Positions 6,520-61,339 of a DNA stretch of 64,000 nucleotides are shown here, piece after piece. The stretch spans positions 49,773-113,772 of the forward strand of contig JBGQJC010000001.1 in NCBI GenBank assembly GCA_041498815.1. The letters are read 5' to 3'. Numbering within the stretch: position 1 is the stretch's first letter; every line of letters begins with the position of its first letter. Origin of the DNA: Alphaproteobacteria bacterium. GTDB lineage: Bacteria; Pseudomonadota; Alphaproteobacteria; DATDPM01. The position numbers and the translations under genes are program-made. The notes under the pieces are model-generated. The model made no database searches. It was not told where the DNA came from and worked only from the letters and a program-made list of their open reading frames with translations.

Positions 6520-6655
6520 GCCTCGGGAGGCTAGGCAAGACTCCGGGGCGGCGACAAATCACGACTGCGATACCATGGCCCTCCTCCGCCGTCCGGCAAC
6601 TATTTGAGCGGCCCAGGATGGACGGGTATTCGCGCGCCGGGCTAGAACACCCCTG

Positions 6656-6745
6656 GATGGGTGGCCGAGCGGTTTAAGGTACCGGTCTTGAAAACCGGAA
6701 AACCCGCAAGGGTTTCGTGGGTTCGAATCCCACCCCATCCGCCAG
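6656..6745 (+). tRNA. tRNA-Ser (anticodon UGA), 90 nt with long variable arm and encoded CCA
   Basis: Acceptor stem ggatggg/cccatcc, anticodon loop cuUGAaa, a long extra arm and the T-arm ggttcgaatcc. Confidence 0.9.
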
Positions 6746-6976
6746 TTATACCGCAACCCGTTGATCTTCCAGCAAGCTGCTGATCCAGCAAACTTTTTTG
6801 TTCCTGGTTGTTACACCAACCTGTTACACCGGGAGCATGAAAGACATGAGCAAACATCCCCGATTGGTGGCCCGTGGTCGCCGCTATTATTTCCGCGCCA
6901 AAATCCCTGCCGATCTCGTTGAGCATGTGCCCCTAACCAGCGAGGGTAGCCCTTTTGGACGGTTGGGACGGATCGG

Positions 6977-7927
6977 GTGTCAACGAAATCGACGCCAGCA
7001 CGTTCCAAATCGTCGAAACTGGCCAGATCATTCGGAAGATCAGCTAGCGGTATCTTCGTGAAATGGACATATCCATGCGCGTTCACATGCGCGCCAGTAT
7101 CGAGTTCGTTGGCGAGCGGAGACGTGGAGGGAACGGCGGTGTGGAAGAGGATTGTGCGGGCGATTCGCGACGCACTCGTTTCGCCAGCACACGATGACGA
7201 GTACATTTCGCGAGAGTTATTTCACTTCGTTGGGCGTACGCATCCGGACAACGACGAAGCCAATTACGGGATTCTGTCAAAGATAATTTCGTCGCGAACG
7301 GTATCGCATCCGCCTCACAACAGCGACTGGGGCAAAATTAGCTATACGATCACTTCGACGGGCGGATTACTCGAAGGGACGCTCATTGAGCCGACGATTA
7401 CATGCTACAGCGATATCCCGTTGCGCAGCCTGCGAATCCATATTGAGAAATACGGCAAATTTGGTCTTTCATTTCATCGCGAGCCTTTGATTTTTCATGG
7501 CGCTAGGCCCGTCACTTATGTGCCGGTCGATTATGGGCCGGGCAATGTTCACGACTCTCCAGCGCAGGGGCGGTATTTAATCGCAGGCTTCGAGGCAGCA
7601 TATCGTGGCTTTATACGTCACATTTATGATAATGAAGCTCGGGCTGTGAGATCAAGCGTTATTGGCAAAGTGGCCGAAAATCGCGCTCAAACAGTTGAGG
7701 CCGTCAAACGCATCTTTGAGAAAGATTTTCTGGCTTTCATAAAAACGTATGATGACCGACTCCCGAAGGATCATCCAAACAACTACTACATGGAACGTGA
7801 GTGGCGGAAACTCGGGAACTTCCAGTTTACGCCGGATCAAGTAATCAGGGTGGTTGTTCCTTCTGCCTATCAAAACCAGATCGCTCGCGCGTTTCCGAAC
7901 TATGTAGATAAAATCTACACGATCTAG
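6977..7927 (+). CDS. hypothetical protein, sole cargo of the low-GC islet at tRNA-Ser (start uncertain; GTG at 7139 possible)
   Basis: The ORF is markedly AT-richer than its flanks from about 7180 to 7930. It has no ATG inside until residue 270. The C-terminal block is NYYMEREWRKLGNFQF. No family could be assigned confidently. Confidence 0.6.
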   Translation: MSTKSTPARSKSSKLARSFGRSASGIFVKWTYPCAFTCAPVSSSLASGDVEGTAVWKRIVRAIRDALVSPAHDDEYISRELFHFVGRTHPDNDEANYGILSKIISSRTVSHPPHNSDWGKISYTITSTGGLLEGTLIEPTITCYSDIPLRSLRIHIEKYGKFGLSFHREPLIFHGARPVTYVPVDYGPGNVHDSPAQGRYLIAGFEAAYRGFIRHIYDNEARAVRSSVIGKVAENRAQTVEAVKRIFEKDFLAFIKTYDDRLPKDHPNNYYMEREWRKLGNFQFTPDQVIRVVVPSAYQNQIARAFPNYVDKIYTI

Positions 7928-8234
7928 AAAATCGCACCTCTATCGAATAGCGAGTGCAGTTAGTTCATTGCACGGTGCTGCGCCTGGGAGCTACAAGCCG
8001 GGATACGCGAGCTTCTCAAGCGCCTCGCGCTTCACACTCAAAGACGCTCCGCCCGAGTACATGCCATACGTTGTCGTTGGCTTGTCGTGCCCGATAATGT
8101 CCGCCGCTACACCCTCGGGCACCCCGGCGTTCTCCAACAGTGTTGCGACTGCTACCTCAAACTGTTACACCAGACGGGCAACTATGGCCTAAAAAAGCTA
8201 GGATTTCCGCTGGTTTCAGCGTCTCGCTGGCTTC

Positions 8235-8250
8235 TCCCACCCCATCCGCC
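8235..8250 (+). repeat. 16-bp direct repeat of the tRNA-Ser 3' end (attR-like) closing the islet
   Basis: tcccaccccatccgcc is identical to tRNA-Ser positions 6729-6744. Confidence 0.55.
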
Positions 8251-8479
8251 GGCCTTCGCGGCTTCGAAGCTTCGCCGGGCGCCGGCACGCCAATTCGCAG
8301 CTTTGCCTGGGCAATCATGGCGCCTTTGTCACGAATTCGCAGCGCCCGGGGTGGCGCCGGAGCGGCGGATTCCGGGATTTTCCAGCCGCCCATTTCTGTA
8401 CTCGATCCCGCTCGCCGTCTGGTATCATGAATGCAATCGGGCGTTGCGTGAAAGCTTTGCGTCCGGCCGCGGCAAAGCT

Positions 8480-10621
8480 ATGGCGGAAATCGAGCAAAAA
8501 TTCGGCGAGGAAGAGGCGGCGAAGGTCCGCGCGTGCCTGGCGAAGGTGATTGCGAGCGAGGTCTTCGCCCAGGCCAAGCGTCAGAAGCGCTTGCTCGAGT
8601 ACCTGACCGCCGAGACATTGGCCGGCCGCGCCAATCTGCTCAAGGGATATACCATCGGAGTCGAGGTATTCGACCGCGACCCGAGCTTCGATCCCGGCAT
8701 CGACGCGATCGTCCGGGTCGAAGCCGCACGGCTCCGGAACAAGCTCTTGGAATATTACGCCGCAGATGGCAGTTCGGATCCCATCCGCATCGAATTGCCG
8801 AAGGGCTCTTACTTCGTCCGGGTCTCCTACCGCGGCGGCGAAACTGGCCGGCAACCGGAAGCGCCGCCGGTAACGCGAAGGCTGGCCGCCATTCTTTGCG
8901 CGGATGTGAAGGGCTACAGCCATTTGATGGAGAAGGACGAGGGGGCAACCGTTCGTACCTTGAGCTCTCATGGGCATGTCATCGCGGGACTGATGGACAG
9001 TCACAGCGGGCGGATCGTCAGCACGGCCGGAGACGGATTTTTGGCCGAATTCGGCAGCGTCGTGGACGCCGTAAACTGCGCGGTCGCCATTCAGCGCAAG
9101 CTTGGCGAGGAAAATGCCGCGCTCGAAGGCGATAGCCGTTTGGATTACCGGATCGGCATAAATCTTGGGGACATCATCATTCAGGAGAAAACCGTTTTCG
9201 GGGACGGAGTGAATATATCCGCTCGGCTCGAATCTTTGGCGAGACCGGGCAACATTTGCATTTCCGGCAGCGTCTACGATCAGGTCAAACGCAAATTGCC
9301 GCTGTCTTATGAGGACGCAGGCCTCCAAAAGCTCAAGAACATCGAGGAGCCGGTCCACGTCTATCATATTCGCATCGCCGGGCCGTTGCCGCCTGCAGCC
9401 CCCCTTCCGGCGCCGCCCGGGATCTCGCCATCCGCTCTCGTAGCGCCCACGGATAAGCCCTCGCTCGCGGTCCTGCCCTTCGCCAACATGAGCAGCGATC
9501 CGGAGCAGGAATATTTTGCCGACGGCATCACCGAAGACTTGATCACCGAATTTTCCAAGCTGTCCGGATTGTTCGTCATCGCCCGCCATTCCGCTTTCGT
9601 CTACAAGGGCGTGAGGAAGAACATCCAGGAGATCGGGAAGGAACTGGGGGTCCGTTACCTGATCGAGGGCAGCGTCCGGCGCGCGGGCGAGCGGGTCCGG
9701 ATCACGGCGCAGTTGATCGACGCCGCATCCGGCGCCCATGTTTGGGCCGAACGCTACGATCGCGACCTCAAGGACATCTTCGACGTCCAGGACGACGTCA
9801 CCCGGCGCATCGTGGATACGCTGCACGTGACACTTTCGCCCGTCGAATCCCAGCGCATCGGCCACGAGGGCACGGTGAGCATCGAGGCCCACGACATGAT
9901 GCTGCGGGGCCTCGAGCGGTTCTGGACGTATTCGCCGGATGGAACCGCCGACGCGCAGGCGCTCTTCCTCAAGGCATTGGAGCTCGACCCGAATTATGCC
10001 GCGGCGCACGGCTGGGTGGCGCGGACGATGGTCTATCAATGGGCGATGAGATGGATCGAAGGCGACATTCTGGATCGGGCGCTTGAGCACGCGACGGCGG
10101 CGGTTCGATTGGACGATCACCTTCCGTTCAGCTATTTCGCGCTGGGCTGGGTCCTGCTGTGGCGCAGGCAAAAGGAAGAGGCGATTGCCGCCGGCCGCCG
10201 CGCGGTGGCGCTGGATCCGAACAACGCCGACTCTCAAATGTTCTTGTCCCTGAGCCTCAGTGCCGCGGACCGCGGGGAAGAGTCGTTGACCTATATCACG
10301 AGCGCCATGCGGCTCAATCCGCATCCGGCGCTGCTTTATGTCTTCGCGCTCGGTCAGTGCTACTACGTCATGAAAAAGTACGATGAGGCGATCGCCGCCT
10401 TCAAATGGGGCGTCCAGTTGGGCGACCAGTTCCCGCCCAACCACCTCTATCTCGCCGCGATTTACAGCGAGCTGGGGCGCACCGAAGAGGCGGCCGCGGA
10501 AAGAGACAGGACTTTCGCGGCGGCGGGCAGCCGGAAACTGCCGGTCATCAAAATGATGATGTTCGAGGGTGAAACCAGCCGCCGGTTAGAGGAAAACTCG
10601 AAACGCATTGGGCTGGCGTAA
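8480..10621 (+). CDS. class III adenylate/guanylate cyclase with N-terminal winged-helix regulator-like domain, TolB-N-like domain and C-terminal TPR repeats
   Basis: CHD cyclase block: LAAILCADVKGYS...STAGDGFLAEFGS...GINLGD. The N-terminus MAEIEQKFGEEE... resembles a DNA-binding transcription-activator domain. The C-terminal repeats are TPR-like. Confidence 0.85.
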   Translation: MAEIEQKFGEEEAAKVRACLAKVIASEVFAQAKRQKRLLEYLTAETLAGRANLLKGYTIGVEVFDRDPSFDPGIDAIVRVEAARLRNKLLEYYAADGSSDPIRIELPKGSYFVRVSYRGGETGRQPEAPPVTRRLAAILCADVKGYSHLMEKDEGATVRTLSSHGHVIAGLMDSHSGRIVSTAGDGFLAEFGSVVDAVNCAVAIQRKLGEENAALEGDSRLDYRIGINLGDIIIQEKTVFGDGVNISARLESLARPGNICISGSVYDQVKRKLPLSYEDAGLQKLKNIEEPVHVYHIRIAGPLPPAAPLPAPPGISPSALVAPTDKPSLAVLPFANMSSDPEQEYFADGITEDLITEFSKLSGLFVIARHSAFVYKGVRKNIQEIGKELGVRYLIEGSVRRAGERVRITAQLIDAASGAHVWAERYDRDLKDIFDVQDDVTRRIVDTLHVTLSPVESQRIGHEGTVSIEAHDMMLRGLERFWTYSPDGTADAQALFLKALELDPNYAAAHGWVARTMVYQWAMRWIEGDILDRALEHATAAVRLDDHLPFSYFALGWVLLWRRQKEEAIAAGRRAVALDPNNADSQMFLSLSLSAADRGEESLTYITSAMRLNPHPALLYVFALGQCYYVMKKYDEAIAAFKWGVQLGDQFPPNHLYLAAIYSELGRTEEAAAERDRTFAAAGSRKLPVIKMMMFEGETSRRLEENSKRIGLA

Positions 10622-10660: not shown

Positions 10661-10712
10661 TAAAAAAAGAGAAGCCCGCGGGGGGAACCGCAGGCTTCAA
10701 GGGGGCGGAAGG
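10661..10712. terminator. putative bidirectional rho-independent terminator between the convergent cyclase and PepSY genes
   Basis: An imperfect GC-rich hairpin (gaagcccgcgg...ccgcaggcttc) is flanked by an A-run upstream, which gives a T-run on the other strand. Confidence 0.35.
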
Positions 10713-10733
10713 AGCTTCGGGGGGAGGAATTCC

Positions 10734-11027
10734 TTAGCGCTGGTCATCGCTGGCGACCGTGCTGATCTCGTGGCCGGTGACGGCGTCGATCTTGAGCTGC
10801 TTTGCGGTCCCGTCGTCTGCGGTATAGCGGAAGTCATAGGCCCGGGCGGAGGTGTCGTAGCGGACGGCCTGGAACTCGCCGTAGTCCGAGCGCTGCTCGA
10901 GGGCGTGCATGACGGTCGAGAATGCGACGATCGGGGAATTGGCGGGCTCTTGCGCGGACGCGGTCGTGGCGGTTAGGGCGAACAGGACGGCGATCATCTT
11001 CACTGTGGTTTCGATTTGGGTCTTCAT
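10734..11027 (-). CDS. PepSY domain-containing periplasmic protein
   Basis: A signal peptide followed by a single PepSY-like fold (YDFRYTADDGTAKQLKIDAVTGHEI). Confidence 0.65.
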   Translation of the reverse strand: MKTQIETTVKMIAVLFALTATTASAQEPANSPIVAFSTVMHALEQRSDYGEFQAVRYDTSARAYDFRYTADDGTAKQLKIDAVTGHEISTVASDDQR

Positions 11028-11208: not shown

Positions 11209-12552
11209 TCAAACCGCGATCACGTAATCGAACCAGAAGGGCCCTTCGGTAAATCCGGGCACCGGCTTGGGCGCCGGGCCGTCGGGCGCCCCGGCAACGT
11301 GGATCGAATCGCTGCGGACGACTCCCTTGGCCTTGTTCTTTAGCGCGTCCATCAATTTCCCGAAGGGGATCGAGGGCCAGGGCTTGTTCTGCGTCGAAAT
11401 CATCGCCGCGAATCGCCCTTGGGTCATTTTCTCCAACGCGCTTTTCGGGGTCGCGTTGTGGCTCCCGTGGTGGCCGACCTTGTAGAAATCGACGCTCGCC
11501 AGGATGTCCTTGGCCTCCGGAGATTCGATCCAGGATTGCCAATTTCCGTATTGGGCGTCCCCCGGGAACAGCAGGTTCCGCCCCTTGTAGGAGAAAAGCG
11601 TTACCAGGCTGGTGTTGTTCACCGCCTGATCCAGCGTGAACGCCAGTCCTTCCGGGTCCCCCGCCATTTGCTCCAGCGCCGCCGCGTCCATCTTGGACAG
11701 GATTCCGGACGGGTAATCCTTGGCGCTTGCGTTCCACTTCTTCGCATTCGGGAACGGGGCGACGGCGTTCACCGTTTCGGCGGCGCTGCCGGCAAGCCGG
11801 AGGAATCGGTCGCCGGCCGGCGGGTCCATCTTGGCGAGGAATTTGGGGTCGCGCGGCGGCCCCAGCACGCGCACGGAAAGCCCGGCGATTCCGGCCGCGT
11901 TCTCGAGCTTGTCGCCGGCTTGATAAAATCGGACCCGGCCTCCGGAGATGCCGTTCTTCAGCAATGCCATGGCTTCGGCATTCGGGGCGAGATTTTGGAT
12001 CGCGTATTGCGCCTGCGCGTCCACTTTGGACATCGCCAGGAAGTGGTGCTCAAGCAACCCGATCAGGGCGAGCTGCTTTCTTTTGAGCTTCGCGGCGGCC
12101 GCGTCGTCCGGGTTTTCGGTCCAGGGCATCCACACTTCACCCACCGACAGTTTCCGGAACGCGTCGCCGAAGCGGCCGAATCCCGACACGTGATCTTGAT
12201 GGGCGTGGGTGGCGATCACGAGCGCGAGCCTGCCGCCGGATTCGCGGGCGATGTCGTTGACCGCATCGCCGATGGTCTTGGCGTCTCCCTGAGAATGCAC
12301 GCCGCAGTCGACCAGGATATGCGCCGCCCCGGATTCGGTCGGCAGCGACAACAGGAAGCAATCGCCGAATCCCACCCGGTACATCCGGATGCGGATTTGG
12401 CCGGCATTCGCGCCGGCCGGACCCGGACGCTTGGCGCGCGGCGCCGGCGTTCGCGCGTTTCTGCGAGGCGCTTTTCCCACATTCCGGGCGCGGGCCCTGC
12501 CCTTCCGGGCCGTCTGGCGCGGCTTTGCGCGTTTTCGCGGCGGTCTCGCCAT
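11209..12552 (-). CDS. MBL-fold metallo-hydrolase (alternative start at 12384)
   Basis: HAHQDHVSG (HxHxDH) and a distal VGHHGSHN block. The long start at 12552 has a GGGGA Shine-Dalgarno and lies 3 nt after the upstream stop, so the two genes are translationally coupled. Confidence 0.75.
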   Translation of the reverse strand: MARPPRKRAKPRQTARKGRARARNVGKAPRRNARTPAPRAKRPGPAGANAGQIRIRMYRVGFGDCFLLSLPTESGAAHILVDCGVHSQGDAKTIGDAVNDIARESGGRLALVIATHAHQDHVSGFGRFGDAFRKLSVGEVWMPWTENPDDAAAAKLKRKQLALIGLLEHHFLAMSKVDAQAQYAIQNLAPNAEAMALLKNGISGGRVRFYQAGDKLENAAGIAGLSVRVLGPPRDPKFLAKMDPPAGDRFLRLAGSAAETVNAVAPFPNAKKWNASAKDYPSGILSKMDAAALEQMAGDPEGLAFTLDQAVNNTSLVTLFSYKGRNLLFPGDAQYGNWQSWIESPEAKDILASVDFYKVGHHGSHNATPKSALEKMTQGRFAAMISTQNKPWPSIPFGKLMDALKNKAKGVVRSDSIHVAGAPDGPAPKPVPGFTEGPFWFDYVIAV

Positions 12553-12555
12553 GGC

Positions 12556-14373
12556 TTAAAATCCCCGATGGATCGCCGCGAAATCGAGTTTCTGCAGCGT
12601 CGCGTCCTTCTGGTACGGCGACAGCGCGGCAACCTCGCCCAGACGCGATTGAAACTCCCGTTGCCGCTGGAGCCGGGACTTGTTGCCGATGCTTTTCCGG
12701 ACCACGTAGCGCACGTTTCCGTTATGATCGAAAATCACGGTCGAGCCGCCCCGGAACGTGAATGCCGGAGATTTGGGATCGGCGGGATCGACCTTTTCGG
12801 GACGTTGCTGCATGAACTCGACGACGAATTCGACGACCAGCCGCCCGTTCGGCGCAATGCGGTGAATGGGGTGGAACGACGACGCCTGAATCTTCAACCC
12901 GCCCTTCTTCGATAGCCCCAAGTCCGCGGCGTGAGTCTTGGCGTAAGCCACCAGAATCTTGGCATTCTTCTTCGCCTTGTCCGCATTCAACTTGGCCGCT
13001 TCCTCGTCCGTTTCGTGGAACACTCCGAATCGCAGCCCTTCGCAGGGCGGGAGGCTCTTGCCGTCGTCGGCCGGGCCGCGCCAGCGCAACGCTTCTTCGC
13101 CATAAGACGCCACATCCTCGGGCACGATGCCGCGGCGGCGGAAGGCGCCGATGAGCTCCGCCCGGTAGCCGTGCGGGTCGTCGGGGACGAGATCGGAATC
13201 GGCGGTGATGATGGCGCGCAGGAACTCCCCGAACTGGATGTCCACGGGCGGCGCATAGTCGATCGCCCGGATGCAGATGTTGAGGAAGTTGCCGGCAATC
13301 TTAACCGCCTCGCGGCACAACCGGTCGGCCAAGTCCGGATGAAGATCGCCGGCAGCGCTGACCGCCCCGCCGGCGCGGCCGATCCGCATCAAATCGGCGG
13401 TCCGCTTGAGATAGACGCTGAAGAACGCATCGAAGACCGCGGCGACCAGGATGGCGCCCCGGTTGTGCGGCTCGAATTCCCTTTCGAGCAATGCGGGATC
13501 GGGCGTGGTGCCCAGGGCCTCCCGCAGCGCCTTTCTCGTGCCCATGGCCTCGCCAAACTGCTTGGCCAGCTCGACCAACGGATTATGGCGGCTGATTTCG
13601 GCGCCGATCACCGGCGCGCCGTCCGGCTTCGCGTCGGGGCGAAGCTCCGGTTTGTAGAGCTGTCCGCCCGTCCGGTTGAGGGTGTCGATGACGGCCTCGC
13701 GCATGGAAAAGTGTTGGAACAGGGCGACGATGTCGGCGAACGCCTCGTGGAACGCGGGGGTGTCGGGGCTGGTCGGTTCGGTAAAATACGTGCGGATCCG
13801 GTCTATGACGGCGTGCGTCGTTTCATGGGCGACGATGTCGTGCGACAGGCACGTGAAGACCGTTTGGCCCGGCAGGTTTTCCCCCGCGTCCGTTTCGGAT
13901 GCCGGGAAGTAACCGAACACCAGCGCTTTCAAATCGGGATCGTAGAAAGCGTTGGCCTGCTGGAATGCGTGGGGGAAAATCCGCAAATGGGCGCGGAACG
14001 GCGCATCCTTGCGCGTGCCCGGCTTGGGGCGGAAGTAGATGTCGCGGCCGAGCGCGGTTTCGAAGCGGCTGATCGTTTCGCTGGCGACGGCGTAAACCAT
14101 TTGCTGATGGAATTGAGGATTCGATTCGCCCGGCTCGACGCCGCCGCGAAGAAGAATGTTGGGGTCGTCGAGATTGACCGGGGCGTACCAGCGCTTGTTG
14201 CTGGCGTCGTAATCGACCACGGCGATCTTGCCGCCGACGGGTCCGGGCCTCAGTTCCTCGTACGGCACGCGAATCTGCATGTAATTGCTGAGATTGCGCC
14301 CCATGCTCGGATCGAAGGCGTAGACCGTGAGCGGCCTCGATGTCGGTTTCGCGTATCGGGGCATTTTAGGCAT
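12556..14373 (-). CDS. cytoplasmic thermolysin-like (M4-family-like) zinc metalloprotease domain protein, 605 aa
   Basis: HETTH (HExxH), then about 24 aa on HEAFADI (third zinc ligand Glu), and a distal HNRGAILVAAVF block resembling the thermolysin His231 region. There is no signal peptide. Confidence 0.65.
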   Translation of the reverse strand: MPKMPRYAKPTSRPLTVYAFDPSMGRNLSNYMQIRVPYEELRPGPVGGKIAVVDYDASNKRWYAPVNLDDPNILLRGGVEPGESNPQFHQQMVYAVASETISRFETALGRDIYFRPKPGTRKDAPFRAHLRIFPHAFQQANAFYDPDLKALVFGYFPASETDAGENLPGQTVFTCLSHDIVAHETTHAVIDRIRTYFTEPTSPDTPAFHEAFADIVALFQHFSMREAVIDTLNRTGGQLYKPELRPDAKPDGAPVIGAEISRHNPLVELAKQFGEAMGTRKALREALGTTPDPALLEREFEPHNRGAILVAAVFDAFFSVYLKRTADLMRIGRAGGAVSAAGDLHPDLADRLCREAVKIAGNFLNICIRAIDYAPPVDIQFGEFLRAIITADSDLVPDDPHGYRAELIGAFRRRGIVPEDVASYGEEALRWRGPADDGKSLPPCEGLRFGVFHETDEEAAKLNADKAKKNAKILVAYAKTHAADLGLSKKGGLKIQASSFHPIHRIAPNGRLVVEFVVEFMQQRPEKVDPADPKSPAFTFRGGSTVIFDHNGNVRYVVRKSIGNKSRLQRQREFQSRLGEVAALSPYQKDATLQKLDFAAIHRGF

Positions 14374-14445
14374 TGGGATTCCTCTCCCCTGATTCTTCCT
14401 TGCGGCGCAGCGGCCTCATGGCCGATCCCGCTCGGCCCGGTCTCC

Positions 14446-15591
14446 TCATACGCCTGCATTCGGATAGGGAAAATTCCCGGGCGCCTTCAGACCGGGGTCG
14501 TGAAAGCTGCGCAGCGCGGCATCGCAAACCGCGTATCCCCAATTGATGAGACGTACCTGGACATCCGGCTCCATCGATGCGAGCCGCGTCGGGATACCCG
14601 CGAGGGCCATAGTTCGTTGCGCGGGGCACGGAAGCGCCCCGGGCGCGGGGTACTCGCTTATGTCCGTCCGGATGCTCCAATACGCGCCCTTGCGCGTCTT
14701 GTCCTTGAACGAGCCGATGACCCCCCGTTTCCGGAGCCCGCGCACCTGGTTGTCCACGAGATCGAAGACCCGGTAGGCGTGACGCGCCCAATCCCCCTTC
14801 GGCTGCGGCTCGGGAGGCATCTTGGCGCCGCCGTCGCTGACCAGGATGGTGTCGAATTCCTTCCAAACCGTTTCCAGCCCCAGGTTGTCGTAAACGCCCC
14901 CGTCGCTGAGGACGACCCGGCGGAGGTAAGGATCTTGCTGCAGATCGTCGCCGGAATTCGGTGCGAACGACTTTGGATCGAGCTCGATGGTCATCGGCGA
15001 AAGAAACGGGGGAAAGGCGGACGATGCGGCCACCGCCGTGGCCAAAGGGATAACGGGATTCATGACGCGCCCCACCCGATAGTCGCCCATGTACGGCTTG
15101 GAAAAACGCCACAGCGCGCCCGACTGAACGTTGGTTGCGTTGATCACGAAACGGGGCCGATCGGGGAGAGATTGCAAAGTCGCGTCGCCGAAAAGGTTGC
15201 TGCGGTAGGCGCCGGCGACACGTTCCGCGATCGTGCCGGGCAGAAGCATGCCGCCAACAACCGCGCCGATGTCGATCGTTTTACCGGCGAGTCGGCGGAG
15301 CGGGCCGACCACGAGATCGGCGAAATCGGTTTTTGCGGAATCGAAGGAAAGCCTGCTCCAGGCCAGCGCCAGAACACCCGCGGCAATCGAGCCACCCGAC
15401 ACGCTCGACACCCGGTTTACGGTTTTGAGAATCCCGCTGTCGTAGAGCCGCCAGAGTACCCCCGCATGGAATACCATGGCACGGTAACCGCCGCCCGAGA
15501 GGCAAAGGCCTATGCCGGGTTGGGGCGCGCGGCCGGACCGCGTGTCATTGAGCGGGCTGTTGCGTGCGGCGGGGGAATCGTCCACGAACAT
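14446..15591 (-). CDS. patatin-like phospholipase
   Basis: Oxyanion-hole GGGYRA, nucleophile elbow GVSGGS, and a DGG-type catalytic Asp block. Confidence 0.85.
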   Translation of the reverse strand: MFVDDSPAARNSPLNDTRSGRAPQPGIGLCLSGGGYRAMVFHAGVLWRLYDSGILKTVNRVSSVSGGSIAAGVLALAWSRLSFDSAKTDFADLVVGPLRRLAGKTIDIGAVVGGMLLPGTIAERVAGAYRSNLFGDATLQSLPDRPRFVINATNVQSGALWRFSKPYMGDYRVGRVMNPVIPLATAVAASSAFPPFLSPMTIELDPKSFAPNSGDDLQQDPYLRRVVLSDGGVYDNLGLETVWKEFDTILVSDGGAKMPPEPQPKGDWARHAYRVFDLVDNQVRGLRKRGVIGSFKDKTRKGAYWSIRTDISEYPAPGALPCPAQRTMALAGIPTRLASMEPDVQVRLINWGYAVCDAALRSFHDPGLKAPGNFPYPNAGV

Positions 15592-15803
15592 GACGATCGG
15601 GCCCCTTCACCAAGATCTTCCTCAGAGGAACACCATCCTATTCGAGACGGCATCGTACTTCAACAACGCAGCTTGAATACCCGCGTCGGATCGCGCAACG
15701 GGAAATGTCGCCAATTTGCGCCGGACGCGCGCCATGCGCCGAAGAAGCTATTATGCCCGCCGGCCGAATCTTAGACCGGCGCACGACATTTTAATTGGGG
15801 ATG

Positions 15804-45696: not shown

Positions 45697-46188
45697 ATGA
45701 TCTCCGGCGGAATCCTCGGCGTTGCGGCAGCCCTGTCGCTGGCGCTCATCGTTCATCCGGCGGAAGTTTCGGCGCGATGCGGCCTGGGCGGCTACGGTGT
45801 TTCCCAATGCCCGGATTACTTCACCACGACCAAGCGGAATTACGGCGGCGAGGCGGAAACCTATGAGCCGCCGCCGATGGCGGCGCATCCGGCGCCTTGG
45901 GATCAATGCGCCAAGACCGGCTGGGGCATCACCGGATGCCCGGGATACAAAACCGGGATCACGCCGGGCGCGCCGGAGTCCGGGTATCGGCAAAACCTGG
46001 ACGATTGCATGAAGACGGGCTGGGGCATTACCGGATGCCCGAATTGGCCTACCGGAACCACGCCCCAGCCGCCGGGATCGCCCCGGAGGCCCGCTTGGTC
46101 GCAGGAAATTCAAGAGAGATGCGGCAAGGCGGCCGATCCCGAATGCTCCGGGGGCGAAAAGCCCGCGTCATCGCCGCCGCCCTATTAA
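45697..46188 (+). CDS. secreted Cys-rich repeat protein (C-x-TGWGITGCP units)
   Basis: A strong Shine-Dalgarno aaggaggaagg, a signal peptide, and repeats QCAKTGWGITGCPGY / DCMKTGWGITGCPNW. It shares DQCAK.G.G with the 44615 protein. Confidence 0.65.
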   Translation: MISGGILGVAAALSLALIVHPAEVSARCGLGGYGVSQCPDYFTTTKRNYGGEAETYEPPPMAAHPAPWDQCAKTGWGITGCPGYKTGITPGAPESGYRQNLDDCMKTGWGITGCPNWPTGTTPQPPGSPRRPAWSQEIQERCGKAADPECSGGEKPASSPPPY

Positions 46189-46209
46189 AAGGCGCCGCGG
46201 CTTCACGCC

Positions 46210-46665
46210 CTAGTCCGGCTCCTGCGGTTTCAGGTGCGGCAAGAGCTTGCGCGCGAATTCCGGAGTGATGTGGGCGAAGAGCTCTTTGTCGAAGGTCGCG
46301 CCCATCGCCGCCTCGAGGAAATAAGTTTGCCCGGCCGCGGCGTTCACCGTCAGATCCGGAATCATCGGCAGTCCATCGCAGGTAAACGTGTGGCGGCCGG
46401 GCGCGATCTGAACGACCGCGTAGCGCCTTTGGTCCAAGGTCACGATCTTCCGCTCGCCGTCATAGATCGTCTTGGACGATCCGAATACGGTCGGCGTACT
46501 CATGTTGAGCACGTAGAGGGCCGCCATTCCGGGAGCGGGCGCTTCGATTTGCGGCGGCGCGGAAGCCCGGTTCGCGCAGCCGGACGCCATCAGCGCGGCG
46601 GCCAACAGCGCGGCAAGATTCCGGCGGCGCCGGTTAGGACCGGAACAGGGCAAAGTAGAGGACAT
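46210..46665 (-). CDS. DUF2846-like lipoprotein
   Basis: Internal start MSSTLPC...LMASGC with a lipobox, and a conserved ...YAVVQIAPGRHTF... core. Confidence 0.55.
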   Translation of the reverse strand: MSSTLPCSGPNRRRRNLAALLAAALMASGCANRASAPPQIEAPAPGMAALYVLNMSTPTVFGSSKTIYDGERKIVTLDQRRYAVVQIAPGRHTFTCDGLPMIPDLTVNAAAGQTYFLEAAMGATFDKELFAHITPEFARKLLPHLKPQEPD

Positions 46666-46810
46666 ACAGCCAGCCCAGGACTCCGTGGATAATGGCCCAA
46701 AGGATGGAATGGTTCGCGGTATAAGAAATCGCGATCGCCAGCGCCGAGCCGAAGCCGATGCCGTATTTCGCGCCTTCGACACGGAAACTATAGGCTTGGA
46801 CTCCGTTCAT
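46634..46810 (-). CDS. YqaE/Pmp3-family small membrane proteolipid (58 aa)
   Basis: ATG preceded by GGGGAGGAAGG. The protein is MNGVQAYSFRVEGAKYGIGFGSALAIAISYTANHSILWAIIHGVLGWLYVLYFALFRS. Its 3' end overlaps the next start by about 30 nt in another frame. Confidence 0.5.
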   Translation of the reverse strand: MNGVQAYSFRVEGAKYGIGFGSALAIAISYTANHSILWAIIHGVLGWLYVLYFALFRS

Positions 46811-46896
46811 GCCTTCCTCCCCGATTGCGATGCCCGGGGCGCCATCAAATTTGCCCGCCCGAGCGAGAAGGGCAACCGGCATCGAACGACCCTTCG

Positions 46897-47931
46897 TCAA
46901 TGCCCGGGATTTTGACGATCGGCCGGAAGGCGGTCAATAAGCGGTGCAACCTGTTCGGCGACCAGCGCGTTGCCGTTCTCATTCAAGTGCGGATCCACGG
47001 CGAAATAGTCGCTCTTGTCGAAAAGAGGCGCCAGGTCGACGACGTTTCGAGCGCCGTTCTCGGTCAGCAACGCGAGGAGGGTTCGGTGCGGGTTAACGAA
47101 TTTGGGATTGCCGTCGTAAAATCTCTTGTCGGGGATCACGAAATAAACGACCGGTACTTTCGCGGCGATGACATCGAACGCTTTGAATACCGTTGCCGCC
47201 TTGTTCTCGGGTACGACCTCACCGGGCCGTCCAAAGACGAACGTCAACATTCGTTCGGCGTGCCGTACGATTGAAGTCAGCAAATAGCTGTTCCGCACGA
47301 CCGGCCAGGATTCATAGGCCGTGATTTGAATGAAGCGCCCGTTGACATCCGAATAGAGTCGCTCGGTCTGGACGCGGATGGGTCCGCCGTTTTCGTCCAC
47401 GCCGAGCCAATGGTTTATTTCGAAATCCCTTGAGTCACTGAACGTGGTGACGAACATGATCAAGAGATCCGGTTGAAGTTGCAGACCTTCCTTCGTGACG
47501 TATGCGTAATAAGTGTCGGGAGAATAAGCGTCGTGAAAGCCGGCGTTGATGACCTCGATCCCGTTGTTTCGAAACTTGGAAGCAAGTATTGCGGCGAAGC
47601 TCTTGTTGTCTCCCATTCCATATCCCACGGCAACGGAATCACCAAGCAGGATAATGCGTTTTACGCCGGCCGGTTTGGCCACCGACTTCGGAAATTCACC
47701 GAGGTAGCCGAGCGTGTTGGTGCGGTAGGTGACGTCGTATTCCGGCGCCACATGGCGAAAAGTCAGATTCGGAGCCAGGGTGAAGGGAAGATAATCGCTT
47801 TTCACCAGGAACTGCGGCATGGAATGTATGAAATACGGTCCAATGAGAATCCGAAGGCCGATTTCGGCAAGAACCAGGCAAACGACGATCGTTAGCGACA
47901 GCAGCATCAGATTCTTCGTCCGGTCGTTCAT
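46897..47931 (-). CDS. SGNH/GDSL hydrolase-type esterase
   Basis: N-terminal TM, block I LLGDSVAVGYG and block V DPHLNENGNALVAEQV. Somewhat AT-richer than its neighbours. Confidence 0.75.
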   Translation of the reverse strand: MNDRTKNLMLLSLTIVVCLVLAEIGLRILIGPYFIHSMPQFLVKSDYLPFTLAPNLTFRHVAPEYDVTYRTNTLGYLGEFPKSVAKPAGVKRIILLGDSVAVGYGMGDNKSFAAILASKFRNNGIEVINAGFHDAYSPDTYYAYVTKEGLQLQPDLLIMFVTTFSDSRDFEINHWLGVDENGGPIRVQTERLYSDVNGRFIQITAYESWPVVRNSYLLTSIVRHAERMLTFVFGRPGEVVPENKAATVFKAFDVIAAKVPVVYFVIPDKRFYDGNPKFVNPHRTLLALLTENGARNVVDLAPLFDKSDYFAVDPHLNENGNALVAEQVAPLIDRLPADRQNPGH

Positions 47932-47969
47932 TTATCGCTCCGTGGAGCCGGCGGGATTGGCGCACATGG

Positions 47970-49805
47970 CTAGTCGGGATCGAAGACATTTCTGTAATCG
48001 CGCTTAAGCGACGGGTTCTGCTCGCTTTTCACGAGATAGAGATTGCCCACCGCCAGCGAGTCCAATTCGGTGCCCATGAAGCAGCGGAACGCATCCTCGG
48101 GCGTGCACACGATCGGTTCGCCGCGCACGTTGAAACTGGTGTTGCACAGCACGGGACAGCCGGTCTTCGCCTTGAAGACCGAGAGCAAGGCGTGGAAGCG
48201 CGGGTTAGTCTCGCCGTGGACGGTTTGGATGCGCGCCGAGTAGTCGACGTGGGTCACCGCGGGTATTTCGGAGCGCGGCACCTTGAGCTTCTCGATGCCG
48301 AAAAGCTTCTGCTCTTGCGCCGTCATCTGGCGCCGGCGGCGCTTCGCCACGTCGGCAACCAGCAGCATGTAAGGGCTGTCGGTGTCGAGATCGAACCAAT
48401 CGGAGACGTCGTCCCGCAACACGGCGGGCGCGAACGGGCGGAACGATTCGCGGTACTTGACCTTGAGGTTGAGGGCCGATTGCATTTCGGGCCGGCGCGC
48501 GTCGGCGAGGATCGAGCGATTGCCGAGCGCCCGCGGCCCGAACTCCATGCGGCCCTGGAACCAGCCGAGCACCTTGCCGTCCGCCAGATCCGCGGCCGCG
48601 CGCGCGATGACCGCGTCGCCGCCGAGCCGCAGGAAACGGGCGCCCGCGGCTTCGAGCCGTTTGGCGCTGTCATCGTCGTCGAATTCGGGACCGAGATAGG
48701 CGCCGCTCATGCCGTCCTGCCGGTTGGCGACCTGGCGCGGGCGATCCTTGTAGACGTGATAGGCGGCGAGTGCGGCGCCCAAGGCCCCGCCGGCGTCCCC
48801 GGCCGCGGGCTGGATCCAGATGCGCTTGAATTTGCCGTCGCGCAAAATCTTGCCGTTCGCGACGCAGTTGAGCGCGACGCCGCCGGCAAGGCACAGATTT
48901 TCCGCGCCGGTCTCGCTTGCTATGCCGCGCGTGAGGCGCAGCACGATTTCCTCGGTCACGGTCTGGATCGACGCGGCGAGATCCATGTGGCGCTGCGAGA
49001 GCGCCTCATCGGCTTTACGCGCCGGCCCGCCGAGCAGCCGGTCGAATTTGCCGCTGGTCATCCGCAGGCCGGTGCAATAGTCGAAATACGACTGGTCGAG
49101 GCGGAAAGTGCCGTCGGGCTTGAGGTCGACGAGATTCTCGAGAATGAGCTTGGTGTATTTGGGCTCGCCGTAAGGGGCAAGACCCATGAGCTTGTATTCT
49201 CCCGAATTGACCTTGAAGCCGGTGTAATAGGTGAAGGCCGAGTACAAGAGGCCGAGCGAATGGGGGAAGTGCAATTCCTTCACCATCTCGAGATGGTTCC
49301 TGCTTCCGAACCCGACCGAGGTCGTCGCCCACTCGCCGACGCCGTCCATGGTCAGGATCACCGCTTCTTCAAACGGAGAGGGAAAGAAGGCGGACGCCGC
49401 GTGGCTTTGGTGATGTTCGCCGAAGAGAAGCCGGTTCTGCCAGTCGTAGTCCGCCGCGAATTTCCCGAGCTCGTCGCGCAGGAGCTGCTTCTGGAACAGC
49501 TTTTCGCGCAGCCAAAGCGGGATCGCCATGCGGAAGGACGCGAATCCCCTGGGCGCGAAGGAAAGATAGGTTTCGAGCAGGCGCTCGAACTTCAGGAACG
49601 GCTTGTCGTAGAAGACGACGTGGTCGACCGAATCCAGCGAGATCCCGCCTGCCCGCAAACAGTATTCGATCGCGTGGCGGGGAAAGCCGGCATCGTGCTT
49701 CTTGCGCGTGAAACGCTCTTCCTGGGCCGCGGCCACGATGGCGCCGTCCCGGAGAAGGGCGGCGGCGCTGTCGTGGTAGAAGGCGGAAATGCCGAGGATG
49801 TGCAT
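47970..49805 (-). CDS. carbamoyltransferase (NodU/CmcH family)
   Basis: MHILGISAFYHDSAAAL starts a Kae1/YgjD-like fold. The C-terminal domain is the carbamoyltransferase domain. Confidence 0.9.
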   Translation of the reverse strand: MHILGISAFYHDSAAALLRDGAIVAAAQEERFTRKKHDAGFPRHAIEYCLRAGGISLDSVDHVVFYDKPFLKFERLLETYLSFAPRGFASFRMAIPLWLREKLFQKQLLRDELGKFAADYDWQNRLLFGEHHQSHAASAFFPSPFEEAVILTMDGVGEWATTSVGFGSRNHLEMVKELHFPHSLGLLYSAFTYYTGFKVNSGEYKLMGLAPYGEPKYTKLILENLVDLKPDGTFRLDQSYFDYCTGLRMTSGKFDRLLGGPARKADEALSQRHMDLAASIQTVTEEIVLRLTRGIASETGAENLCLAGGVALNCVANGKILRDGKFKRIWIQPAAGDAGGALGAALAAYHVYKDRPRQVANRQDGMSGAYLGPEFDDDDSAKRLEAAGARFLRLGGDAVIARAAADLADGKVLGWFQGRMEFGPRALGNRSILADARRPEMQSALNLKVKYRESFRPFAPAVLRDDVSDWFDLDTDSPYMLLVADVAKRRRRQMTAQEQKLFGIEKLKVPRSEIPAVTHVDYSARIQTVHGETNPRFHALLSVFKAKTGCPVLCNTSFNVRGEPIVCTPEDAFRCFMGTELDSLAVGNLYLVKSEQNPSLKRDYRNVFDPD

Positions 49806-57795: not shown

Positions 57796-58230
57796 ATGCA
57801 TGTGGCGCAGATACTGAAGGCCAAGGGAGACCGCGTTGAAACCGTCGGCGAGACGGTGAGTATTGCCAAGGTGTCGCAAATGCTTCGGGAAAAGCGGATC
57901 GGTGCCGTGGTCGTCACCGGCGGCGATGGAGCCGTGTCCGGCATCCTCTCCGAGAAGGAAATCGTCCATGGTCTCGCCGCTTACGGGACCGCCCTGCTCG
58001 GAATGACGGCGGCGCAGATCATGAATCGGGAGGTCGTAACCTGCACGCCCGAATCCCGTGTCGAGGAGCTGATGCGCGAGATGACGACGCGCCGCGCCCG
58101 GCATCTGCCGGTCATCCATCAAGGCGCGCTCGCCGGCATCGTCAGCATCGGCGACGTCGTCAAGTGGCGGCTCGACGAACTCCAGTCCGAGGCCCAAAGC
58201 TTGCGGGATTACGTGACCGGATCGCGCTGA
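57796..58230 (+). CDS. CBS domain pair protein (alternative start at 57742)
   Basis: Shine-Dalgarno aagggagg. Tandem CBS motifs (IGAVVVTGGDGAVSGILSEKE ... HLPVIHQGALAGIVSIGD). Confidence 0.7.
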   Translation: MHVAQILKAKGDRVETVGETVSIAKVSQMLREKRIGAVVVTGGDGAVSGILSEKEIVHGLAAYGTALLGMTAAQIMNREVVTCTPESRVEELMREMTTRRARHLPVIHQGALAGIVSIGDVVKWRLDELQSEAQSLRDYVTGSR

Positions 58231-58339
58231 CGTAAACGCGGCGGTTTAGGCGATGCGGGTTTTTGGCGCGGATTCCGGGACGGAGGCGAGGTGGCGGGCC
58301 CGAAGACCCGCCACTTCGTTGAGCTTCAAGTCTTGCGCG

Positions 58340-58621
58340 TCACTTCGTCGGCGCCGGCGCCGGCGCCGGTGCGCACGCCTTTAGCGTCGTGGAGTACACC
58401 ATGCCCGTCGGGCAAGTCGGTGTTGGCGCCGTAGTAGTAGGAGCGGGAGCAGCAGTAGGAGGGGGGGCGGGCACGCATGCTTTTTTGGTCGCGTCCCACA
58501 CCAAGAGCGGGGGGCACGCAGGAACAGGAGCGGCTTTAGTCTGAGCGTATGCGGCCATCGGAGCCGAGACAGCGAGCAGAAGGCCAGCAAGAGCTGCGCC
58601 TGTAATGATTTTAAACAACAT
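58340..58621 (-). CDS. small secreted Pro/Ala/Thr-rich protein with four Cys
   Basis: A signal peptide, then APVPACPPLL..KKACVPAPPP...CPTGMVYSTTLKACAPAPAP. Confidence 0.45.
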   Translation of the reverse strand: MLFKIITGAALAGLLLAVSAPMAAYAQTKAAPVPACPPLLVWDATKKACVPAPPPTAAPAPTTTAPTPTCPTGMVYSTTLKACAPAPAPAPTK

Positions 58622-58884
58622 CTGGAACTCCTTTTTTTGACTTACTTAGTCGCCATGCGATAATTGTATTACATTTATCATTTGTCACAAAGATTCCTCG
58701 ACGGTGACCCGAGACCCTCGTTTTCCTCCAGATTTGAGTAGAGTCCGTGACTCCAGGAAGGAGACGGACGAGGCGTAAGTCGAGGTTCACGCTGACATGC
58801 CGCGACCGGTAGACGATGGCGGCTTTCGGTCCGGAAGCGGAAGCTCGCGCGCTGCTGTCAGTCCGGATTTATGGGTTCACGGAT

Positions 58885-59187
58885 TCAGCGCCGCCGATTT
58901 ACGTTGTTTTTCCATTCGCGCCGGCCCCTGCGGATGAGCCGGACAATCCAGCGCTTGAGCGGCGGCACGTCGTCGGCCAGAAGCAGAAGGCCCAAGGGAA
59001 TCATCCAAATTCCGAGAACGGGCAGGAATCCGAAAATCCCGCCAATAATGAAAACGACGGCGGCCGGCAGGCGCACCCATCGGCCGGCGGGCGCGCGCAG
59101 CCAATGCACGGCGCCGCGCAGCCGCACCGGCAACGTATCGATCATGTGCCGGATATAGCGCTCGCGGCGCTCGTGACTCGGGCTCAT
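58885..59187 (-). CDS. PGPGW/YbaN-like small membrane protein
   Basis: A basic N-terminus, then IIGGIFGFLPVLGIWMIPLGLLLLADDVP. Confidence 0.45.
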   Translation of the reverse strand: MSPSHERRERYIRHMIDTLPVRLRGAVHWLRAPAGRWVRLPAAVVFIIGGIFGFLPVLGIWMIPLGLLLLADDVPPLKRWIVRLIRRGRREWKNNVNRRR

Positions 59188-59257
59188 GGCGACATCCGCG
59201 GGCGATCATGCAATTGCATGGTTTCGGTGTCAGGAGATTCAAAATCGAATGGTGAGC

Positions 59258-59296
59258 CTGGCGTCTACGATCTCGTCAACGAGGGGTGTTAGGGCG
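59258..59296 (+). repeat. direct repeat copy C
   Basis: ggcgtctacgatctcgtcaacgaggggtgttaggg. Confidence 0.8.
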
Positions 59297-59315
59297 GCGG
59301 GCAACGGCGGGTAAT

Positions 59316-59690
59316 TTAACGACAACTCTCGATGTTGCCTCCCCGGTCTGCACCGCAAGCGGAGTTGCCAAAGACGGTGTTGTTATTGATCGTTGCGGAG
59401 GCGCAATCGGTTACTTCGACACTCCAGTACTGGCTGGTACCATTTCCGAGGTCTCTCCTGCACAGCGCTCTGGCGTATACTGCTCCTTCTTGCTGCTGGT
59501 TCGGAACAACCCCTTTTTGCGGCACGAGAGATAGGCGAAGGATATTCTTGTCCAGCACACTGTCGTCCCGAAGTGTGATCTCTGTCGAATTTTTCAGGAG
59601 AGCGAGTCGCGCCTGATCATTCGAGTCAAGGTTGCACCCGGTGAGAGACAAGACCATAAAGAGAACACCGAAGCATTGAGTCTTTATCAT
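59316..59690 (-). CDS. lipoprotein (hypothetical), AT-richer
   Basis: Lipobox LSLTGC and four Cys. Confidence 0.55.
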   Translation of the reverse strand: MIKTQCFGVLFMVLSLTGCNLDSNDQARLALLKNSTEITLRDDSVLDKNILRLSLVPQKGVVPNQQQEGAVYARALCRRDLGNGTSQYWSVEVTDCASATINNNTVFGNSACGADRGGNIESCR

Positions 59691-59763
59691 TTTTATCCTC
59701 GCTTTTTTGCCGTGTTCTGATTTGCCAGGAGAGGACTATTCTTGCCCAATTGGAGGCCAGTAA

Positions 59764-59913
59764 CATGTCCCGCCATGAAATCGTGTTGGGCAGGAAAAGC
59801 AAACCGCTATGGAGTGCCGCTCGGTCAGTCGCCCCGAGCGCATGGGATTTAGGCCGGTATTCCACTGGGGCGCACAAGGTCCCGAGGACGTCGAAATCGT
59901 GGATTACCACTGA
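59764..59913 (+). pseudogene. 5'-truncated higB-like toxin remnant (only the C-terminal ~25-50 codons retained)
   Basis: A frame ending in TGA at 59911-13 reads ...MGFRPVFHWGAQGPEDVEIVDYH, which is the characteristic HigB/RelE-family C-terminus. A stop lies at 59761 and no room remains for the N-terminal two thirds. Confidence 0.45.
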
Positions 59914-59938
59914 CGGTTTCTTGTCGAGGACAACAGCC

Positions 59939-60232: not shown

Positions 60233-60366
60233 GAGGCGCGGGACGGAGGCGCGGGCCAAAAGAGAGCGATCTCTATTAGGGCGATTCTTGAACGGAGGCG
60301 CGGGCGAAAGTAGGCCGTGGCGATTAAGGTGGCACAGATTGTGGGGATGCCTGAAATTTCACGCTC

Positions 60367-61018: not shown

Positions 61019-61024
61019 GTACGA

Positions 61025-61309: not shown

Positions 61310-61339
61310 CCGACCAAACGGCCGCTAAAATAGAAGATT

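Follow-up and report, generated by a model that had tools for sequence, protein, structure and literature searches.

A thermolysin-like metalloprotease and a ComEC-like MBL-fold hydrolase form a widespread, co-inherited gene pair, probably a protease-activated nuclease module with an optional patatin-like phospholipase

Introduction

What might hold a phospholipase, a protease and a metallo-beta-lactamase (MBL)-fold hydrolase together in one bacterial gene cluster? The question is raised by a 64,000-nucleotide stretch of the alphaproteobacterial contig JBGQJC010000001.1 (the whole of which is called the window below), where three adjacent genes encode a patatin-like phospholipase, a thermolysin-like zinc metalloprotease and a ComEC-like MBL protein. 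An initial annotation of this DNA took the three genes as a translationally coupled trio that might be controlled by a neighbouring phosphorelay. The analysis reported here moves the emphasis from a phosphorelay-controlled trio to a widespread pair of a metalloprotease and a putative pro-nuclease, with an optional phospholipase. The protease and the MBL, often accompanied by a phospholipase, are probably an undescribed metalloprotease version of the protease-activated suicide-nuclease modules of prokaryotic immunity.

The ComEC-like MBL nucleases of the Hachiman, AVAST, Lamassu and DRT systems are gated proenzymes, in which two insertions block the active site (Tuck et al., Science 2026; PMC12799240). 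These gated MBLs are switched on through site-specific cleavage by a co-evolving trypsin-like protease; caspase-nuclease (canu) loci follow the same activation logic, and a subtilase-associated class of MBL was also detected (PMC12799240). The paper and its supplement name three protease families only, and mention neither a metalloprotease nor a phospholipase (PMC12799240). We found no description in the literature of a defence pair made of a thermolysin-like metalloprotease and an MBL.

The protease and MBL genes are inherited as a unit

We scanned for homologues in one genome per species, which gave at least 582 loci, and used the best 80 for neighbour counts. These 80 loci span the Acidobacteriota, Alpha-, Beta- and Gammaproteobacteria, Chloroflexota, Myxococcota, Planctomycetota, Gemmatimonadota, Bacteroidota, Clostridia and others. 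In 77 of them an MBL homologue lies directly 3' of the protease gene on the same strand; two of the three exceptions are contig ends, and the third has an inserted gene. Recurrence in 77 of 80 independent loci goes far beyond what chance would give. Among 60 cleanly called pairs, the great majority have stop-start gaps of -4 to +3 nt, and the pairwise divergence of the protease is matched by that of the MBL (Mantel r=0.88, against 0.10 or less in each of 2000 permutations). Thus, the protease and the MBL constitute a conserved, translationally coupled and co-inherited unit.

The junction of the two genes in the window, where the protease stop precedes the MBL start by 3 nt, was read correctly in the initial annotation; with a GGGGA motif 9 nt 5' of the MBL ATG, it bears the sequence signature of translational coupling. 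The patatin stop, placed there about 70 bp before the protease start, lies at a measured distance of 72 nt, and this spacer contains a GGAGAGG Shine-Dalgarno sequence ~7 nt 5' of the protease ATG. Of the trio that had been proposed, the coupling consequently stands for the protease and MBL but not for the patatin, with its 72-nt spacer. The co-occurrence in other genomes that the annotation had suggested looking for divides in the same way, being general for the protease and MBL and restricted for the patatin, as detailed below.

A single locus (L032; DASPYG010000180.1) carries an archaeal label, being binned as Candidatus Nitrosopolaris. Its G+C content is 64%, and its proteins share 52-56% identity with those of the window. 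The locus seems to be either a wrongly binned bacterial contig or a recent transfer, and does not count as evidence for an archaeal distribution.

The protease has a thermolysin-like fold and an added C-terminal domain

Structure prediction was needed to identify the fold of the protease, as the sequence had no match in Pfam (E<=0.1), NCBIfam, PADLOC or the Protein Data Bank (PDB) sequences. The AlphaFold2 model, with a predicted local distance difference test (pLDDT) score of 77.7 and a predicted template modelling (pTM) score of 0.84, is thermolysin-like, and Foldseek matched it to thermolysin, vibriolysin and aureolysin at E values of 1e-5 to 1e-4. The alignments span only ~260-300 residues of the protease, whose fold begins at around residue 10 and whose thermolysin-like part ends near residue 430. 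In an alignment of 24 diverse homologues H183-E184-T-T-H187, E210, D214, H221 and H303 are invariant, and the HExxH motif with E210 and D214 is also kept in six out of six long fusion forms. The invariant residues and the predicted fold bear out the HExxH motif, distal glutamate and histidine block that the initial annotation had recognised as those of M4 peptidases.

The same annotation had proposed an intracellular M4-like enzyme. The fold, the active site and the lack of a visible signal peptide or propeptide agree with this, although membership of the Pfam family does not follow: homologues score 17.8-20.3 bits, against a gathering score of 22.4 for Peptidase_M4 / M4_C. The N-terminus, MPKMPRYAKPTSRPLTVYAFDPS, has no hydrophobic segment by inspection (no dedicated signal-peptide predictor was run), and Pfam gave no match to FTP or PepSY propeptide domains in the protease.

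Two parts of the protein are variable or additional. A 40-residue loop (residues 240-280) is predicted to be disordered and varies among homologues. The extra C-terminal domain of ~150 residues, a helix, a four-stranded sheet and a helix, has no equivalent in thermolysin, and its Foldseek matches are to NTF2-like folds only, weak and non-significant. Judged from the model, this domain is a candidate for sensing or oligomerisation. Homologues of the protease fall into at least 8000 clusters at 90% identity, labelled 'hypothetical' or occasionally 'peptidase M4', and into 1505 clusters at 50% identity (E<1e-30).

Many of these homologues are 1100-1350 aa long. We identified an S8 subtilase domain (Peptidase_S8) fused N-terminally to the M4-like domain, 5' of the MBL gene, in four loci (L059, L077, L082 and L083; ~8.1-11.9 kb of each), and the same fusion on the Methylorubrum plasmid pCMU01 (NC_011758.1 293913-297011). 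The window protease has no such subtilase domain. Fusions of this type may be part of the subtilase-associated nuclease clade of Tuck et al. In another locus (L039, 8321-11794) the protease carries at its N-terminus a fused Phosphoesterase domain (PF04185, phospholipase C/AcpA-like), a Rosetta-stone connection to a lipid or phosphoester hydrolase. Finally, locus L013 (8219-11779) has two full M4-like units head to tail before a single MBL, as one polypeptide or two genes; the units are 43% and 50% identical to the window protease, both with intact catalytic residues, and the tandem hints that the protease may act as a dimer. The zincin catalytic residues are kept in all of these long forms, be they subtilase-M4, phospholipase C-M4 or M4-M4. 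A fusion of protease and MBL, or of patatin and protease, was also considered for homologues of 843-1053 aa, and was left unconfirmed, Pfam being empty in their N-terminal extensions.

The MBL resembles defence nucleases and contains two insertions

The initial annotation had placed the MBL among recurrent defence components, and its best sequence matches agree: these are the LmuA-type MBL (3.9e-23), the DRT-associated RTasMBL (6e-14) and Avs1a (8e-13) in PADLOC, and Avs1a in NCBIfam (4.6e-17; 61.8 bits, cut-off 420), all of them well under the equivalog cut-offs. The best structural match of the MBL model is the nuclease domain of ComEC, with which 247 of ~395 core residues align, and which also served as the reference for the gated nucleases in PMC12799240. 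The ComEC domain has 266 residues, so that the core of the MBL is larger by ~130, contained in two insertions. In profile comparisons with hhalign, the M4-associated MBLs matched a CHAT-associated MBL at 97.5% probability over 295 columns, a homology over the full length, and a true ComEC domain over the first 84 columns only. The metal ligands of the MBL (HxHxDH at 116-121, D332 and H361/H362) are invariant, both in the MBL alignment and in the 60 pairs.

The first insertion (residues 146-205) is modelled as a confidently folded helical bundle, and the second (241-300) has pLDDT values of 54-64. Within the second insertion P266 is 92% and F267 98% conserved over 60 diverse MBL homologues, inside an otherwise variable loop, and this region is a candidate gating loop or cleavage site. 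Thermolysin-type (family M4) enzymes favour bulky hydrophobic P1' residues. The N-terminal 50 residues of the MBL, rich in Lys, Arg, Ala and Pro, are predicted to be disordered (pLDDT ~40). This basic tail is of variable length, and many homologues have its composition, but not its sequence, in common; it may bind DNA.

The patatin is a facultative companion of the pair

The patatin has the expected catalytic motifs, a GGGxR oxyanion motif, the nucleophile S65 in VSGGS and D230 in DGG, which are invariant in 11 cassette patatins. Patatin homologues are found close to the protease-MBL pair in 17 of the 80 loci (~21%), upstream, downstream or on the opposite strand, and the order patatin-M4-MBL recurs in ~10 of the 80 and on the plasmid pColt5.8d. 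An obligatory three-gene system was rejected because of this low frequency. Patatin identity and protease identity do not run in parallel (63% against 40% in locus L068), and repeated recombination of modules is therefore indicated. Other lipid hydrolases occur in similar positions: a phospholipase D (PLD)-like gene is directly 5' of the pair in two loci (L030, L043) and on the Bradyrhizobium plasmid pBq66S1MBa. The comparison with the CBASS phospholipase CapV, made in the initial annotation, does not extend to orthology, as the window patatin scores 15 bits with the NCBIfam model CBASS_lipase (cut-off 200).

Searching from the patatin, we examined 80 close relatives from metagenomes (54-69% identity), of which 8 adjoin M4(-MBL) genes. 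Most close homologues of the patatin occur without the M4-MBL pair, and among relatives on contigs >4 kb about one third adjoin some protease-MBL module. The patatin is thus a facultative yet non-random companion of protease-nuclease modules, and a putative accessory effector.

We additionally observed patatin relatives beside other proteases. They adjoin subtilase (S8)-MBL pairs in three loci (L089, L090, L093), a papain-type Peptidase_C1 protease with an MBL in a fourth (L123, 2129-6495), and a 1370-aa CHAT-STAND(AAA_16)-S8 protein in a fifth (L148, 3308-7417). These cases suggest a broader theme of patatin, protease and MBL with further undescribed protease partners.

The lipid hydrolases bear on two other explanations of the pair. 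One is a metabolic or housekeeping role, in which the MBL would be a phosphodiesterase (like the phosphorylcholine esterase Pce) that turns over phospholipid head groups together with the phospholipases, and the peptidase would act in the cytoplasm in some unrelated way. This is very unlikely: 75-80% of the loci have no lipase, and the distribution is patchy and suggestive of horizontal transfer, with 40-68% identity across phyla and occurrence on conjugative plasmids. Moreover, proteases of four unrelated classes are partners of this one MBL clade and patatin family, which fits zymogen control and not a pathway, and the basic N-terminal tail and the sequence similarities of the MBL point to defence nucleases.

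The other is a set of toxins or effectors directed at other bacteria or eukaryotic hosts, secreted, or else a module for programmed death or developmental lysis. Patatin, PLD and DUF2235 (Tle1-like) lipases, and nucleases, are classic effector types of the type VI secretion system (T6SS) and of contact-dependent systems; a DUF2235 gene lies near the pair on pCMU01, and soil, social and plant-associated bacteria (Myxococcota, rhizobial plasmids) have the pair in abundance. We consider this quite unlikely all the same, since the three proteins have no signal peptide, PAAR, Rhs, VgrG or MIX, no small immunity-like gene or secretion gene is conserved nearby, and the MBL is most closely related to anti-phage MBLs.

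The pair is mobile and in part located in defence islands

The family was found on 57 plasmids, 35 of them conjugative. On pColt5.8d of R. rhizogenes the pair lies between a CBASS cyclase with SAVED, ImmA/HTH genes and an AAA+HNH pair; on pCMU01 it is flanked by two SIR2 genes, an AAA+exonuclease pair and IS5; and on pBq66S1MBa it is near CHAT, IS630 and VapC genes. In five loci (L006 (13284-17415), L024, L025, L027 and L031), a Canu-like pair of a ~990-aa CHAT protein and a 380-aa LmuA/Avs1a-type MBL (PADLOC E down to 8.7e-77) is directly beside the M4-MBL pair, so that two different protease-nuclease modules stand in tandem.

The annotation of 100 proteins flanking the pair gave, with Pfam, Patatin 10 times, short-chain-dehydrogenase families 5 times each, Lactamase_B 4 times and CHAT 3 times. 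Four or five of the flanking MBLs, those of canu-like pairs, score strongly with the LmuA-type defence model, and PD-T4-6, Mad, HipA and MkoA were each matched once. The proximity to known defence genes that the initial annotation had proposed as a check is therefore evident in the defence islands of pColt5.8d, pCMU01 and pBq66S1MBa, but modest among the chromosomal flanking proteins. We found no relatives on IMG/VR viral contigs, which is neutral for a defence role.

The plasmid contexts raise the possibility of inverse control, as in toxin-antitoxin or addiction modules. The MBL, and perhaps the patatin, would be constitutively toxic, the co-translated protease would degrade or bind the MBL, and the toxin would be freed by loss of the protease, by its inhibition by a phage or by loss of the plasmid. 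This accords with the tight coupling and co-divergence of the pair, with its frequency on conjugative plasmids and its position beside VapC and insertion sequence (IS) elements, with the lack of a separate sensor gene, and with the upstream position of the protease gene, the product of which is made first. It is nevertheless unlikely. Every characterised protease-MBL pair works through activation of a gated pro-nuclease by its protease, the presence of the same kind of insertions in the MBL and of a conserved Pro-Phe in a variable loop suggests site-specific cleavage and not bulk degradation, and a 605-aa enzyme with an extra domain would be atypical as an antitoxin.

The phosphorelay genes are not conserved neighbours

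The genes 5' of the cassette encode, by their Pfam domains, a PAS-HisKA-HATPase kinase, a REC protein and a REC-HisKA-HATPase hybrid, and are separated from the patatin gene by 212 nt, as the initial annotation had stated. The signal control of the cassette that it had proposed on this ground is unsupported by synteny. Two-component genes occur in 15 of 84 sequences (the window and 83 fetched loci), and adjoin the pair only in the window, in three near-identical contigs (L001-L003) and in one other locus (L081), where two kinase-type genes lie 5' of the pair. Because the adjacency is restricted in this way, it looks incidental, and we rejected phosphorelay control for want of conserved two-component neighbours.

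An obligatory, coupled three-gene defence cassette governed by the phosphorelay, as first envisaged, is accordingly highly improbable. It draws on the recurrence of the trio with the same upstream genes in the three near-identical contigs, on the order patatin-M4-MBL where this is found, and on the kinase-type genes of L081. Against it, the patatin is missing from ~79% of the loci and is incongruent in identity with the protease, variable in position and strand, and the two-component genes have the narrow distribution just described. The 212-nt gap also leaves room for a promoter of the cassette's own; it is likely to be the site of one, we infer, and no sigma-70 consensus was found in it on the cassette strand.

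A model for the pair and its significance

We consider it rather probable that the protease and MBL genes form a two-gene conflict module, most likely of the anti-phage, abortive-infection type, in which the protease activates a gated MBL pro-nuclease. The metalloprotease and the MBL would be co-translated, the MBL as an inactive or restrained proenzyme owing to its two insertions relative to ComEC. A trigger, presumably a phage, would activate the protease, possibly via the extra C-terminal domain or oligomerisation. The protease would then cut an insertion loop of the MBL, with Pro266-Phe267 as the candidate site, and the cut would activate the MBL instead of destroying it. The freed enzyme, a predicted DNase, would degrade cellular and viral DNA, with abortive infection as the outcome. 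The patatin would be a second, membrane-directed effector, licensed by the same protease or acting in parallel.

Several observations weigh against this model. No recognisable sensor NTPase accompanies the pair, unlike in Hachiman, AVAST and Lamassu, and the protease matches no PADLOC model. The insertion at residues 146-205 of the MBL is predicted to be a folded helical bundle and not a disordered loop. The chromosomal neighbours are mostly housekeeping genes, with only the modest defence content noted above, and near the cassette in the window, an AbiGi-like open reading frame (ORF) 3.3 kb away is the one gene that resembles a defence gene.

A more far-reaching version of the activation model, which we regard as possible but doubtful, would make the metalloprotease both sensor and activator, licensing two chemically distinct suicide effectors, a gated ComEC-like DNase and a patatin, PLD or phospholipase C. 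Sensing would proceed via the C-terminal domain or, in other members, via a two-step cascade with the fused subtilase. If this is true, metalloproteases would have been recruited independently as the fourth class of zymogen activators in prokaryotic immunity, and would be the first to be coupled to the destruction of both membrane and DNA.

If the pair is confirmed as a protease-activated module, the principle of the protease-activated pro-nuclease would extend to zinc metalloproteases, a fourth and mechanistically unrelated protease class, in a cross-phylum, plasmid-borne family of at least 1500 clusters at 50% identity, at least 582 species and 57 plasmids. It would provide a minimal two-gene system, free of helicase, STAND or SMC sensors, in which to study infection sensing, and a natural case of one protease tied to two effector types, DNase and phospholipase. 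The protease escapes current defence-annotation models entirely. Protease cascades, a defining trait of innate immunity in eukaryotes, are hinted at by the subtilase-M4 fusions.

Layout of the cassette and its neighbours in the window

The window DNA has 63% G+C and contains long antisense shadow ORFs. A greedy, length-based gene calling picked such shadow ORFs and was replaced by a filter on codon-position GC (GC3>GC1>GC2), which picks the patatin, protease and MBL frames over them. In the ORF list of the window all three genes are on the minus strand, in agreement with the initial annotation (Table 1).

Table 1. Positions of the cassette genes and their features in the window
Feature	Position	Strand	Basis
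Patatin-like phospholipase, 381 aa	14446..15591	-	Pfam Patatin, E=2.8e-21
Spacer between patatin and protease, 72 nt	14374..14445	-	Sequence: patatin TGA, 72 nt, protease ATG
Thermolysin-like zinc metalloprotease (clan MA, M4/M36-like fold), 605 aa, predicted cytoplasmic	12556..14373	-	Motifs and model
Protease HExxH zinc-binding/catalytic motif, H183-E184-T-T-H187	13813..13827	-	Invariant columns of protease alignment
Protease third ligand E210, and D214 (FHEAFAD)	~13732-13752	-	Invariant columns of protease alignment
Protease extra C-terminal domain, ~residues 455-605	12559..13011	-	Secondary structure of model
Junction of protease stop and MBL start	12553..12566	-	Sequence: GGGGA 12566-12562, TAA 12558-12556, 3 nt (GCC), ATG 12552
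ComEC-like MBL-fold hydrolase, 447 aa, predicted (pro-)DNase	11209..12552	-	Pfam Lactamase_B, E=4.6e-11
MBL N-terminal tail, residues 1-50	12403..12552	-	pLDDT ~40; MBL alignment
MBL metal motif HxHxDH, H116-A-H118-Q-D120-H121	12190..12207	-	Invariant columns in MBL alignment and 60 pairs
MBL helical insertion, residues 146-205	11938-12117	-	Model
MBL low-confidence insertion, residues ~241-300	11653..11832	-	pLDDT 54-64; no counterpart in ComEC
Intergenic region 5' of patatin, up to REC-kinase gene, 212 nt	15592..15803	-	Sequence

The GC content of the cassette equals that of its surroundings in the window. At 3-4.5 kb from it we identified a tRNA-Ser gene (6655-6744), followed by an ORF start that resembles the N-terminus of a tyrosine integrase (MSKHPRLVARGRRYYFRAKIPADLVEH, from ~6838) and by the AbiGi-like ORF (6977-7927; Pfam AbiGi 1.7e-14, PADLOC AbiGi 2.9e-10). 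The integrase fragment and the AbiGi-like ORF lie in a low-GC islet (0.49-0.55, against 0.63), and the region 6655-7927 has the look of a degraded integrative element with an abortive-infection gene as cargo. An att repeat of the 3' end of the tRNA-Ser gene that would delimit an island including the cassette was not found in the window.

Convergent with the cassette, an 844-aa protein (8087-10621, plus strand) has a class III adenylate/guanylate cyclase domain and C-terminal TPR repeats, with a weak match to a PycC-like PADLOC model (2.6e-08); two of the near-identical contigs (L001, L003) have the same arrangement. Directly 3' of the MBL gene is a 97-aa ORF (10671-11027, minus strand) with a signal-peptide-like N-terminus, which is kept in the same two contigs and in no other loci. 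This ORF is followed by a hairpin (10698-10671), the only one in the region with a strong resemblance to an intrinsic terminator, which may end the cassette transcript. Further low-GC stretches at 46000-48000 (0.585) and 58000-62000 (0.55-0.59), the latter by a tRNA-Lys gene (61926-62000, minus strand), may be additional islands.

Comparison with known systems

The individual proteins each have characterised relatives. The protease shares its fold, HExxH motif and downstream glutamate zinc ligand with M4 thermolysin and M36 fungalysin (MEROPS clan MA(E)). Unlike these, it is predicted to be cytoplasmic, without a signal peptide or an FTP/PepSY propeptide, has the added 150-aa C-terminal domain and the 40-residue disordered loop, and is linked in an operon to a predicted nuclease gene. 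Similarly, the MBL differs from the nuclease domain of ComEC/Rec2 in being soluble and stand-alone, without the competence channel domain, and in adding ~130 residues in two insertions and a basic tail. The patatin has the fold and the Ser-Asp dyad of CapV of CBASS and, like it, sits beside immune-type genes, and hydrolysis of membrane phospholipids as a suicide effector activity is plausible for it. In contrast to CBASS, no CD-NTase or cyclic-nucleotide sensor is adjacent to the cassette, the cyclase domain of the nearby 844-aa protein, on the other strand, being of class III.

Among protease-nuclease systems, Canu (CanABC) is similar in that a stand-alone protease gene is followed by an MBL nuclease gene, without a classical defence core. 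The Canu protease is a caspase/CHAT cysteine enzyme, whereas that of the window is a metalloprotease, and Pfam found no Peptidase_C14 or CHAT domain in the cassette proteins. The window pair also lacks a CanB-like partner and Ig-like or TPR domains, and the conserved loop residue, Gly in Canu, is replaced by Pro-Phe in the window MBL family.

Hachiman (HamMAB), AVAST type 1 (Avs1a/Avs1b), Lamassu and DRT have, like the window pair, a ComEC-like MBL with two insertions, an adjacent and co-evolving protease gene, horizontal spread and defence-island neighbours, and the window MBL matches the PADLOC/NCBIfam models of exactly those MBLs, far under the cut-offs. Their proteases are trypsin-like serine enzymes, and that of the window is a thermolysin-like zinc enzyme; with its zincin fold, it is not a trypsin, caspase/CHAT or subtilase partner. 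It carries no fused HamA, STAND NTPase or LmuA, and is accompanied by no helicase, STAND or SMC sensor gene; for AVAST type 1, the low Avs1a score coincides with the lack of a STAND gene in the window neighbourhood. The nuclease gene is 3' of the protease gene, whereas it is upstream in the four systems, and a phospholipase is a frequent extra component of the window-type pair, which it is not in theirs.

The pair consequently agrees with gated protease-MBL pairs in its ComEC-like MBL, the insertions, the co-evolving protease and its mobility, and departs from them in protease family and sensor NTPase; it is therefore a member of no named system. The initial annotation had likewise matched the cassette to no named system, and none fits, although a precedent exists in the protease-activated MBL pro-nucleases of 2025/26, which employ other classes of protease.

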